Assembly: GCA_041908565.1 (NCBI GenBank)
Contig: JAYRFD010001269.1
Span: 1-16,577 of the forward strand
Direction of reading: 5' to 3'
From: Polyangia bacterium
GTDB lineage: Bacteria; Myxococcota_A; Polyangia; Palsa-1104; JAEUJZ01
Length of the DNA: 16,577 nt
A program made the position numbers and the translations under genes. Of the stretch, positions 14,263 to 16,577 are shown piece after piece. The stretch's first letter is position 1, and the number at the start of each line of letters is the position of its first letter. The notes beneath the pieces were generated by a model, which saw only the letters and a list, made by a program, of their open reading frames with translations, did not search any database and had not been told where the DNA came from.

Positions 14263-16248
14263 ATGCCCGCGTTCCCACCGCCCGCGTCCTCGTCCCGACC
14301 TGCGCTCTCGCGCCGTTCCCACACCATCGGCCTTCTGCTTTGCCTGGGCCTGCCTGTTGCCGAACTTTCCTGCACCCCCTGCGAGCCGATCGCGCCGCTG
14401 CGCCCCGATCCGATGCCGACGCAAGAGGCGGTCAAGCCAGCCGGTCCCAGCGTCGACGATGCGCGCCGCTTCATGGACGAAACAGAAGCCGAGCTACGCC
14501 AAGTGTGGACGCGCCGCGAGCGCCTGAGCTTCCTGCAGAACACCTATATCACCCACGATACGGAATCGATGGTGGCCGCCGTCGATGCCGAGTCGATGGA
14601 AGTGGTGGCGCGGCGGATCAAAGACAGCAAGCGCTTCGACGGAGTGCAGCTACCGCCGGATCTGAAGCGCAAGTTCGACAACCTGCGGCTGTCGCAGGTG
14701 CTGGCCGCTCCGCCCGAGACAGCCGAGCGCGAGGAGCTTGCCAGGATCGCCGCGTCGATGGAAGCGCACTACGGCAAGGCCAAGTACTGCAAGCCGGTGG
14801 CGACACAGCCCGCGCAGGCGACGCAGACGGCCCCCGCGCAGGGCGCGCCCACGCCGGCTGCCGCCAATCCGCCGGCGCAGAAGTGCCTGAACTTGGATGA
14901 ACTGGAACGGACGCTGAAGACCAGCCGCAGCTACGACGAGCTTCTGGATGCGTGGGCCGGTTGGCATGAGCAGGCGAAGGCTCTGCGCGCGCCGTACAGC
15001 CGCTATGTTGCGCTGGCCAACAAGGGCGCTCGCGATGCGGGGTACAGCGATCTGGGCCTGCTGTGGCGCGCCAAGTACGACATGCCGCCCGACGCCTTCG
15101 CACAAGATGTCGAGCGCCTGTGGGGACAGGTGCAGCCGCTGTACAAGTCGCTGCACTGCTACACCCGCATGAAGCTGCGCCAGACCTATGGCGCCCGCGT
15201 GTCCGATACCGGGCCGATCCCGGCCCACCTTCTGGGCAACATGTGGGCGCAGGACTGGGGCAATGTCTGGCCGATCGTCGCGCCGGCCGGCAAGGGCCGC
15301 AGCCTGGACATCGCGGCATCGCTGGTCCGCAAAAAGACGACGCCGCAGGGCATGGTCAAGTACGGTGAGAGCTTCTTCACGTCGATGGGCCTGGACCCGC
15401 TGCCCGATAGCTTCTGGCAGCGATCGATGTTCCTGCGCCCGCGTGATCGCGATGTCGTGTGCCACGCCAGCGCTTGGGACATCACCAGCCGCGGCGATCT
15501 GCGCTTGAAGATGTGCATCGAAAACGACGCCGACAACTTCAAGACCGTGCACCACGAGCTTGGGCACATCTATTATTACTGGTACTACCGCGATCAGCCG
15601 CTGTTGTTTCAGTCGGGCGCCAACGATGGATTTCACGAAGGCATCGGTGACACCATCGCGCTTTCGATCACGCCGCAGTACTTGAAGCAGATTGGCTTGC
15701 TCGATCAGGTCAGCGATTCACCCGCCGACGATCTGGCGTTCCTTTTGCGCGATGCTTTGGATCGCGTGTCGTTCCTGCCCTTCGGCAAGCTGATTGATCA
15801 GTGGCGCTGGCAGGTGTTTTCGGGACAGACCAAGCCGGAAGACTTCAACAAGGCCTGGTGGGAGCTGCGCACGCGCTATCAAGGCGTTGCTCCAGCGACG
15901 GCGCGCACCGAAGATCACTTTGATCCGGGAGCCAAGTACCACATCCCGGCCAACGTGCCGTACATGCGCTACTTCCTGGCGCACATCCTGCAGTTCCAGT
16001 TCCATCGCGCGCTGTGCCAGGCCGCAGGACACAACGGTCCGCTGCACAAGTGCTCGGTCTATGGCAACCGCGCGGCCGGCGACAAGCTGAAGGCCGTGCT
16101 CGCGATGGGAGCAGGTCGGCCGTGGCAGGAAGCGATGCAGACGATCGCGGGCACCAACCAGATCGACGCTGGCGCGCTGCTTGAGTACTACCAGCCGCTG
16201 CAGACCTGGCTTGACGAGCAGACCAAGACGCAGAAATGCGGCTGGTAA
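14263..16248 (+). CDS. M2-family zinc metallopeptidase (peptidyl-dipeptidase A, an angiotensin-converting-enzyme homolog), secreted, single catalytic domain.
   Basis: ATG at 14263 with AGGAGA at 14251-14256. Signal peptide 'RRSHTIGLLLCLGLPVAELS'. The catalytic block 'HHELGHIYYYWYYRDQPLLFQSGANDGFHEGIGDTIALSITPQYLKQIGLL' aligns almost residue-for-residue with recalled human ACE '[52 protein letters not shown]', giving HExxH plus the downstream Glu zinc ligand. Length is 661 aa. Confidence 0.85.
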   Translation: MPAFPPPASSSRPALSRRSHTIGLLLCLGLPVAELSCTPCEPIAPLRPDPMPTQEAVKPAGPSVDDARRFMDETEAELRQVWTRRERLSFLQNTYITHDTESMVAAVDAESMEVVARRIKDSKRFDGVQLPPDLKRKFDNLRLSQVLAAPPETAEREELARIAASMEAHYGKAKYCKPVATQPAQATQTAPAQGAPTPAAANPPAQKCLNLDELERTLKTSRSYDELLDAWAGWHEQAKALRAPYSRYVALANKGARDAGYSDLGLLWRAKYDMPPDAFAQDVERLWGQVQPLYKSLHCYTRMKLRQTYGARVSDTGPIPAHLLGNMWAQDWGNVWPIVAPAGKGRSLDIAASLVRKKTTPQGMVKYGESFFTSMGLDPLPDSFWQRSMFLRPRDRDVVCHASAWDITSRGDLRLKMCIENDADNFKTVHHELGHIYYYWYYRDQPLLFQSGANDGFHEGIGDTIALSITPQYLKQIGLLDQVSDSPADDLAFLLRDALDRVSFLPFGKLIDQWRWQVFSGQTKPEDFNKAWWELRTRYQGVAPATARTEDHFDPGAKYHIPANVPYMRYFLAHILQFQFHRALCQAAGHNGPLHKCSVYGNRAAGDKLKAVLAMGAGRPWQEAMQTIAGTNQIDAGALLEYYQPLQTWLDEQTKTQKCGW

Positions 16249-16577
16249 GCGTCGCGCTGGCCGGCCTGCTGTTTGGCGGCTGTGCCAGCGCCTCGCACGG
16301 GCAGAATCGATCGATGAATTCGCCGGCCTTTGATCCCGCGCTGGTGCTGCCCATCGTGCAGTGGCCAGCAGAGCAGCCCCGACCGCTGTCGCCGACGTCA
16401 GCGACGACGACAACCACGACGTCGATGCCAGATCCGACACAGGCCACCGACCCAGTCGCGGGATCGGTAGGGCCTTCGGTTGCGCAGTCGATCGCGAATC
16501 CAAGCAGCGCGGTCTTGCGGCAGATCGCCACGCCGTGGACGCGGGCCGATGGGGATATCGCGCCGCTTCTGGCCCGC
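16234..16577 (+). CDS. Putative lipoprotein, 3'-partial, with a Thr/Pro-rich linker.
   Basis: The ATG at 16234 overlaps the last 4 codons of the M2 peptidase gene (ATGCGGCTGGTAA), which suggests translational coupling. The N-terminus 'MRLVSVALAGLLFGGCASAS' has a canonical lipobox (L-F-G-G-C). It is followed by low-complexity 'SPTSATTTTTTSMPDPTQATDP'. The frame is open to the window end and is absent from the ORF track because no stop falls inside the window. Confidence 0.5.

Follow-up and report, generated by a model that had tools for sequence, protein, structure and literature searches.

What is encoded by the gene that overlaps the end of a bacterial angiotensin-converting enzyme (ACE)-like peptidase gene, and why are the two so closely joined? 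The question is raised by a 16,577-nucleotide (nt) stretch of DNA from a Polyangia bacterium (GenBank assembly GCA_041908565.1, contig JAYRFD010001269.1, forward strand; hereafter the window), near the end of which a gene for an M2-family peptidase runs into a reading frame that begins like a lipoprotein and is cut off by the end of the stretch. The original prediction, made from the letters of the window, had taken this second frame for a possible anchor, inhibitor or substrate-delivery partner of the peptidase. We found that it encodes a second enzyme, a peptide deformylase (PDF) that carries a lipoprotein-type export signal and is predicted to act outside the cytoplasm, and that the M2-PDF pair is kept together across one clade of uncultured Myxococcales. 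The window has a G+C content of 61-68%, at which long open reading frames (ORFs) arise frequently by chance, and independent support was therefore required for each claim.

What the downstream gene encodes was hidden in the window, which stops at codon 114, short of motif 1 of the deformylases. The visible N-terminus reads MRLVSVALAGLLFGGC, and the 114-codon fragment gave no Pfam match, the deformylase domain lying beyond the window end. An exact look-up of the window M2 protein returned no contig on record, and the PDF was read from an ENA metagenome contig (L001) that was reached via the M2 homologue P0001, which is 98% identical to the window M2. L001 is 97% identical to the window DNA, the PDF region included, and extends beyond the window end. 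Its positions 2321-3112 encode the full PDF of 263 amino acids (aa) with a Pfam Pep_deformylase match, and full-length homologues of it were found (P0121-P0131). The expectation that the frame continues as a real gene past the window end was thus borne out. The protein from L001 is laid out as a signal peptide with lipobox (residues 1-16), a tether, a conserved FDPALVLPIVQWP, a T/A/P-rich stretch and a complete deformylase core.

The core has the sequence features of a deformylase. The three motifs of the proteins of L001 and P0121 read GVGIAAPQ, EACLS (in which the canonical Gly is replaced by Ala and the Cys is retained) and QHELDH, and the residues Gly124, Gly126, Ala128, Ala129, Gln131, Glu174, Cys176, Leu177, Ser178, His221, Glu222, Asp224 and His225 were invariant between lipoprotein-type and canonical PDFs. 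When the protein was searched against the PDB sequences, deformylases only were returned, the best being that of Thermotoga maritima (7e-25). The AlphaFold model, built on a 67-sequence alignment, had a pLDDT of 85.7 and a pTM of 0.80; the pLDDT was at least 90 across 176 residues, around 90 or above for residues 31-50 and 91-263, between 51 and 66 for residues 51-90, and low in the signal. All of the top 50 Foldseek matches of this model were deformylases, with target-normalised TM scores of 0.8-0.86, which placed the model with type 1B; the best PDB structure was a deformylase of class I type b (target-normalised TM 0.82), and the basic C-terminal helix was retained. Between orthologues, dN/dS was 0.13-0.31 in the enzyme core and 0.12-0.50 for residues 18-52. 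The possibility of a chance high-GC ORF was rejected by these ratios together with the full-length homologues. Public records label these lipoprotein-type proteins merely "peptide deformylase". From sequence and model together, the downstream gene product is a peptide deformylase with all metal ligands and catalytic residues intact and a type-1B-like fold, and deformylase activity is predicted for it.

The N-terminus of the PDF, M-R-LVSVALAGLLFG-G-C16, fits the succession of n-region, h-region and [GAS]-Cys lipobox expected of a lipoprotein; the lipobox assignments for both the deformylase and the M2 protein were made by pattern and homology. Equivalent lipoboxes were present in P0121-P0131 and in about 36 remoter relatives, and a box of the form [LVF]-x-G-C-A occurred in every M2-coupled PDF but that of L002. 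Among the 120 best PDF homologues the position of motif 1 was bimodal, at residue 41-59 or at residue 76-123. Nearly all proteins of the second group carried an n-region, an h-region and [GAS]-C (38 by regular expression and about 9 by eye, so that lipobox-bearing PDFs made up about 47 of the 120), whereas most of the other homologues, with motif 1 at residue 41-59, showed no clear lipobox. A stricter lipobox expression matched none of 66 genome loci that carry an ordinary def and lie below 40% identity (cyanobacteria, Photobacterium, Planctomycetota and others) and one of 80 metagenome loci. The constraint on residues 18-52 further indicates that the N-terminal extension is translated and under selection. 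The mature PDF has one Cys only, the catalytic one. Neither the M2 protein nor the PDF carries a lysine at position +2, which has been linked to inner-membrane retention of lipoproteins in Myxococcus xanthus (PMC3222651), a rule whose application to this organism is an extrapolation. These features of the N-terminus predict that the PDF acts outside the cytoplasm, away from ribosomes. No description of an exported, periplasmic, secreted or lipoprotein deformylase was found in a search limited to open-access text, so that an earlier description is possible, and a 2025 survey of accessory deformylases (PMC12690207) does not mention exported forms.

A separate observation concerns L002 (positions 4602-4740; GCA_035345735.1), where the overlap and the MRLV start are kept and the h-region and lipobox are destroyed, with LLPALQQGWVV in place of the LLPALLVGCAT of its close relative L020. 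Loss of export in this lineage might explain the difference, as might assembly noise.

The upstream gene encodes a genuine M2 (ACE-family) peptidase, as had been proposed, and its sequence predicts peptidyl-dipeptidase activity. The Pfam family Peptidase_M2 (PF01401) matched aa 65-661 of the protein over profile positions 5-581 of 581 with E = 2e-220 and 733.8 bits against a cut-off of 23, and the N- and C-domains of human ACE each aligned with it at about 1e-148 to 1e-150. NCBIfam gave no match for M2 or for either of the two small ORFs. The zinc ligands are H431-E432-x-x-H435 and E459, the Glu lying 24 residues past the second His, which is the spacing of ACE, and HHELGH was kept in all 120 best M2 homologues. 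Counterparts of GAKYH and PYMRYF are likewise present in human ACE, where we take the Lys and His of GAKxH and the Tyr of PYxRY to dock the C-terminal carboxylate of the substrate and to stabilise the transition state, as in the testis ACE (tACE) structures. Cysteines 176/208, 400/418 and 585/597 aligned with the positions of what we take to be the three disulfide pairs of ACE, which is consistent with an oxidising compartment. Database names for the homologues are 'M2 family metallopeptidase' or 'peptidyl-dipeptidase A'. At least 8000 scored homologues were found. Each of them was significant, and Sorangium, Polyangium, Minicystis, Chondromyces and metagenome-assembled genomes (MAGs) of Myxococcales contributed many. 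The earlier view that bacterial M2 peptidases are uncommon thus did not hold, for they are abundant, especially in Myxococcota. Within the Cys176-Cys208 loop the window protein has a low-complexity A/Q/T/P-rich insertion of 27 aa, VATQPAQATQTAPAQGAPTPAAANPPA (aa 179-205, 14797..14877); human ACE has in its place a tight disulfide loop of 7 residues, CHPNGSC.

The M2 protein also has an export signal by sequence, in keeping with the secretion that the original prediction had assumed. Its hydrophobic stretch of 13 residues is followed by L-S-C37 and then by the invariant TPCEPIAPLRPDP. Cys37 aligns with the lipobox Cys of close relatives (F-A-S-C, A-G-S-C and L-P-G-C), and remoter M2 proteins of Sorangium and Polyangium have the classic lipoboxes GAAC and GSAC. 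Because of a Glu at position -3, lipid modification of Cys37 is likely rather than certain; the corresponding box of L010 has an Arg at -1. Since the M2 protein is itself probably lipid-anchored, it would require no partner as an anchor. Export by the Tat route via the SRRSH sequence was rejected, as the RR pair varies among close orthologues. Directly after the h-region of the signal, the sequence C-T-P-C-E-P-[IL]-A-P-[LV]-[RK]-x-D-P (14371..14412, M2 aa 37-50) was found invariant in 25 of the 120 best M2 homologues, and the first Cys of this CTPCEP motif is the probable lipidation site.

The end of the M2 gene overlaps the start of the lipobox-bearing gene by 13 nt (Table 1), as the original prediction had noticed, and the overlap proved to be conserved in orthologous loci. 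The sequence ATGCGGCTGGTA[AG] was identical in all 11 M2-PDF loci (the window, L001, L002, L009, L011-L014 and L019-L021), which represent about seven distinct lineages and come from uncultured Myxococcales, including three named Myxococcales MAGs and one labelled Pseudomonadota. Across these loci the M2 proteins were 84-98% identical and the identity of the PDFs fell to 59%, and the flanking genes varied among the loci (small lipoprotein, YjbR, SBP56, adh_short, DJ-1/PfpI and CLIPPER). A PDF was present behind all M2 homologues of at least 84% identity and absent behind those of 73% or less. The KCGW C-terminus is kept also in M2 proteins without a PDF partner, and the start of the PDF (AA-ATG-C) therefore appears to exploit a pre-existing sequence, which dictates the MRLV N-terminus of the PDF. 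The motif AGGAG[AG]A precedes the M2 ATG also in L001, L009, L011, L019, L020 and L002, and no AGGAG-like Shine-Dalgarno sequence was found in the 20 nt before the PDF start. We infer from this arrangement that the overlap is a site for termination-reinitiation coupling.

Upstream of the M2 gene, a 27-nt block was the only invariant sequence in six M2-PDF loci, the rest of the upstream DNA being unalignable. The block with TGATATAAG probably serves the M2-PDF unit as its promoter, a role suggested by the resemblance of TGATATAAG to an extended -10 element; a scan for strict sigma-70 consensus promoters and terminators gave nothing above shuffled expectation. Two PDF-less M2 homologues (L004:9981-10000 and L007:9981-10000) have TGCTATAG directly before the annotated ATG and no Shine-Dalgarno sequence, which suggests leaderless or otherwise organised expression, unlike the TGATATAAG block and 80-nt leader of the M2-PDF loci.

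What the two enzymes might do together was considered on these grounds, and we give about an even chance to the reading that M2 and PDF both sit in the cell envelope and jointly degrade N-formyl-Met peptides. One mRNA would give both proteins, with ribosomes stopping at the M2 stop codon and restarting 10 nt upstream for the PDF, and both products would be exported by Sec, lipid-modified and tethered on the periplasmic or the outer-membrane side of the envelope. There they may break down N-formyl-methionyl oligopeptides together. If mammalian ACE is a guide, the M2 enzyme would trim C-terminal dipeptides without needing a free N-terminus, and the PDF would strip the formyl cap that blocks aminopeptidases and the use of the remaining fragment. 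ACE-type enzymes tolerate blocked N-termini, as in Hip-His-Leu, FA-PGG and Ac-SDKP, and the pocket-lining motifs of the PDF look ordinary in the alignment. The formyl peptides might come from lysed prey or neighbour cells, prey lysate being a source of them for predatory or saprophytic Myxococcota, or from membrane and exported proteins of the cell itself, the signal sequences of which escape deformylation in the cytoplasm. In the literature, the signal recognition particle (SRP), by its binding, shields signal sequences against deformylation and it is proposed that N-out membrane proteins retain their formyl-methionine (fMet) (PMC5454389), and formylated N-termini occur outside the cytoplasm (PMC5454389, PMC12690207). 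The reading is drawn because deformylase chemistry is formyl-specific, ACE types take C-terminal dipeptides, and formylated N-termini exist outside the cytoplasm. More tentatively, and at somewhat less than an even chance, lipid-anchored PDFs of the envelope may be an extracytoplasmic counterpart of N-terminal processing that in one myxobacterial clade has been hard-wired to an ACE-like enzyme for the catabolism or detoxification of formyl peptides. The envelope-localised peptidase module of the original prediction is a fair description of the M2-PDF pair.

The wider family places the pairing in context. Lipobox-bearing PDFs also occur in other Myxococcota and in "Deltaproteobacteria" MAGs, including a Haliangium bin, and their neighbours include Exo_endo_phos and, elsewhere, giant secreted-type proteins with a TonB-dependent receptor. 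A general link between lipoprotein PDFs and M2 was rejected, as remote members adjoin Exo_endo_phos, M90, YkuD-DUF1287 or TonB-receptor genes; since these neighbours vary, the M2 link is clade-specific. A metagenome scan with P0121, which was dominated by the generic IFQHELDH and served as a negative control only, returned relatives of at most 42% identity, none of them beside an M2 gene. In three loci (L026:2427-3695, L029:1129-2373 and L030:6649-8130, all on the minus strand) a gene with YkuD (L,D-transpeptidase) and DUF1287 lies convergent after the lipoprotein PDF, and in L015 a YkuD gene lies about 5 kb from it; these neighbours hint at a cell-wall context. In L099 (6001-7451) the gene of the remote EGCLS-type lipoprotein PDF P0146 overlaps by 1 nt a Peptidase_M90 (MtfA-like) gene that comes after it, and the M90 protein is without a signal peptide; this is a second deformylase-metallopeptidase coupling, here apparently across compartments.

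Several observations weigh against joint breakdown of formyl peptides in the envelope. Only in one clade of uncultured Myxococcales is the PDF paired with M2, the remoter lipoprotein-type PDFs are not adjacent to M2, and the M90 partner has no signal peptide, so that sharing of a compartment by PDF and partner is not the rule throughout this family. As to export, the window M2 box, GLPVAE-L-S-C37, is non-canonical, and L002 keeps the overlap and lacks the PDF lipobox. An Fe(II) deformylase is oxygen-labile, which makes the envelope a chemically awkward site unless another metal is used. As to substrate, the M2-coupled PDFs and their nearest relatives have EACLS, where the remote lipoprotein-type members have EGCLS, and the former score just below the NCBIfam cut-offs of TIGR00079 and NF001159 (for P0121, 100.7 against 103.95 and 124.4 against 125). 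The NCBIfam deformylase scores of P0135 were lower than those of P0121, and the remote lipoprotein PDFs P0146 and P0205 passed. Because these equivalog cut-offs were missed, the protein was classed as a member of a divergent deformylase subfamily and not as a housekeeping Def, and together with EACLS the low scores make an altered specificity possible.

Among other explanations, we regard it as unlikely that the pair serves defence, with PDF and M2 inactivating the N-formylated membrane-active peptides of competitors (leaderless bacteriocins, gramicidin-like or PSM-like peptides) or with the PDF acting as a periplasmic decoy that would capture actinonin-type inhibitors ahead of the essential cytoplasmic enzyme. 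The anatomy of two exported hydrolases would be the same, myxobacteria inhabit antibiotic-rich soil communities, and related deformylase structures bind actinonin in the same fold; in addition, accessory deformylases are widespread and tied to adaptation and resistance (PMC12690207). However, the M2-PDF neighbourhoods are without resistance, efflux or biosynthetic genes, and catabolism is the simpler account of a coupling to a dipeptidyl carboxypeptidase of broad range.

A role in maturation, in which the exported PDF deformylates N-out or other envelope proteins while M2 would simply share its expression or would trim those proteins too, is in our view improbable. ACE types cleave short peptides in an enclosed cleft and not the termini of membrane proteins, and lipoprotein PDFs are found in few lineages, whereas N-out proteins are universal. 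These points are set against the basic C-terminal helix and unchanged active site that the PDF keeps, and against the SRP protection of signal sequences and the fMet that N-out proteins are proposed to retain (PMC5454389), all of which would suit such a role.

The anchor, inhibitor or delivery partner of the original prediction, a downstream lipoprotein without catalytic function, gave way to a second enzyme with every catalytic residue in place, and only a small chance is left to it. Conservation of all catalytic and metal residues under purifying selection, and the M2 protein's own signal and probable lipid anchor, argue against such a partner, even though tight coupling usually fixes stoichiometry and often marks physical partners and the low-complexity insertion and FDPALVLPIVQWP are specific to the M2-coupled clade.

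It is equally doubtful that the pair reflects adjacency only, an accessory def having been inserted once behind M2 with the AAATGC of KCGW as its start and then simply inherited. Such a history would account for a pairing limited to one clade with M2 identity of at least 84%, for the KCGW that is conserved in partnerless M2 proteins and for the unrelated neighbours of the other lipoprotein PDFs; but the genes to either side of the pair have been replaced repeatedly, with no change in the overlap or the upstream motif, and both products carry export signals. A mis-called start, by which the PDF would be an ordinary cytoplasmic accessory Def initiating at an internal Met, as the database entry P0127 is called and as the L002 protein without lipobox might suggest, is very improbable, given that the lipobox Cys and h-region are conserved down to about 35% identity, that the constraint noted above lies upstream of the enzyme core, that the conserved N-terminal segment is built into the modelled fold and that canonical deformylases are without such an extension. 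Joint breakdown of formyl peptides by a probably exported M2-PDF pair remains the reading that we prefer.

The features of the locus are collected in Table 1.

Table 1. Positions of the M2-PDF unit and associated features in the window
Feature	Position	Strand	Basis
Small lipoprotein gene, 113 aa, signal LLVCMFAAC, Cys28	13640..13981	+	ORF, lipobox, family
Conserved 27-nt upstream block AGTCGTGATATAAGCCCAGGCTTTCCG, about 90 nt before M2 start	14161..14187	+	comparative alignment
TGATATAAG, resembling an extended -10 element	14166..14174	+	within the 27-nt block
Shine-Dalgarno AGGAGA, 4 nt before M2 ATG	14253..14258	+	sequence; kept in relatives
M2 peptidyl-dipeptidase gene, 661 aa, ATG start	14263..16248	+	Pfam PF01401, human ACE matches
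Signal peptide of M2 with SRRSH as n-region and TIGLLLCLGLPVA as h-region, ending L-S-C37	14263..14373	+	N-terminal comparison
Zinc site HHELGH, aa 430-435	15550..15567	+	aligns with HHEMGH of human ACE
Zinc site HEGIGD, aa 458-463	15634..15651	+	aligns with HEAIGD of human ACE
GAKYH (aa 556-560)...PYMRYF (aa 566-571)	15928..15975	+	aligns with GAKFH...PYIRYF of human ACE
13-nt gene overlap ATGCGGCTGGTAA; K-C-G-W-stop (M2 frame), M-R-L-V (PDF frame)	16236..16248	+	invariant across loci
Lipoprotein-type PDF gene, first 114 codons, open to window end	16236..16577	+	L001 Pfam match, homologues
PDF signal peptide MRLVSVALAGLLFGG, then lipobox Cys16	16236..16283	+	pattern, homologues
FDPALVLPIVQW, predicted first strand of PDF fold	16329..16364	+	alignment with canonical PDFs, AlphaFold model
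T/A/P-rich low-complexity insertion of PDF	after 16364 to about 16508	+	alignment, model
AVLRQIATPW motif of PDF, beginning	16509	+	alignment with canonical PDFs

The lipoprotein gene that was reported about 280 nt upstream of M2 is real, with 281 nt between its end and the M2 start. Its family has at least 171 cluster representatives (E < 1e-3), mostly of about 100 aa, among which P0241 is 95% identical to the window protein and likewise 113 aa long, and the window protein matched nothing in Pfam or NCBIfam. It lies beside M2-PDF only in the window and in the near-identical sister contig L001, unrelated genes taking its place in the other loci. Its membership of the module, as originally proposed, was accordingly rejected, and the module is confined to the M2-PDF pair. 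The C-terminal half of this small lipoprotein (13757..13978; IFVDGKRWSQRLGQAVAIAAGPHTVTF) resembles by eye a PEGA-type beta-sandwich motif. Further upstream, a 974-aa ORF (6655..9579, plus strand) has Major Vault Protein domains (MVP_shoulder at E = 7e-21, Vault_3 and Vault_4) and by sequence is a bacterial protein homologous to the shell protein of eukaryotic vaults. Directly downstream of it lies a gene for a 1257-aa Ser/Thr kinase-AAA_16-TPR (STAND-type) protein (9693..13466).

In the textbook view, deformylases work in the cytoplasm or in organelles, where nascent chains at the ribosome are their substrates; they are also targets of antibiotics. If lipid-anchored PDFs do provide an extracytoplasmic counterpart of N-terminal processing, coupled in this clade to an ACE-like enzyme, the PDF would be the first exported deformylase, and a bacterial ACE homologue would for the first time have a concrete physiological role. 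Deformylation would then take place also where there is no translation, which bears on metal use, substrates and inhibitor susceptibility. N-formyl peptides are classic bacterial signals for animal innate immunity, and a pair that destroys them outside the cell may be useful as a tool or be of relevance to microbial interactions. The physiological role of bacterial ACE homologues has been described as undefined (PMC7737717, PMC3235092). A conserved, coupled partner provides a directly testable hypothesis for it, namely formyl-peptide breakdown.

Compared with the canonical PDF (E. coli Def, type 1B; the best match being A. baumannii 6JF6/6JES), the downstream protein has the same fold, about 40% identity, the three motifs and the basic C-terminal helix, and it differs in its lipoprotein signal and tether, in EACLS instead of EGCLS and in an insertion of 30-45 aa after the first strand. 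The housekeeping gene is usually arranged as def-fmt, whereas the M2-coupled gene is not adjacent to fmt. The plant PDF1A and PDF1B and the human mitochondrial PDF (3M6O, 4JE6, 3G5K) likewise have a deformylase core with an N-terminal extension, which in those organellar enzymes targets compartments that translate. The periplasm has no translation, so that the substrates of an exported PDF must be finished peptides or proteins. In the known pairing of Def with methionine aminopeptidase, deformylation unblocks the N-terminus for a metallopeptidase (PMC12690207); here the partner M2 works from the C-terminus (the partner is M90 in a remote relative) and the predicted site is the envelope.

The M2 protein shares with human somatic and testis ACE (PDB 1O86, 7Q3Y) the zinc site, the docking segments and the three Cys pairs, and differs from it in having one domain, no C-terminal transmembrane anchor, a probable N-terminal lipid anchor and no renin-angiotensin context. 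For XcACE, the ACE homologue of Xanthomonas axonopodis pv. citri, we know of no described partner gene. XcACE is reported to be periplasmic, active on angiotensin I and sensitive to ACE inhibitors (Riviere et al. 2007, as cited in PMC3235092 and PMC7737717). It is a single-domain bacterial M2 with a signal sequence, and the window M2 has the same Pfam family and zinc site; the latter differs in belonging to a myxobacterial subfamily with a lipobox-type signal, CTPCEP, the 27-aa insertion in the first disulfide loop and the coupling to a deformylase. A periplasmic bacterial M2 enzyme has thus already been reported in XcACE, and what appears to be new here, as judged from the sequences, is a deformylase with a lipoprotein export signal and its coupling to an M2 peptidase.

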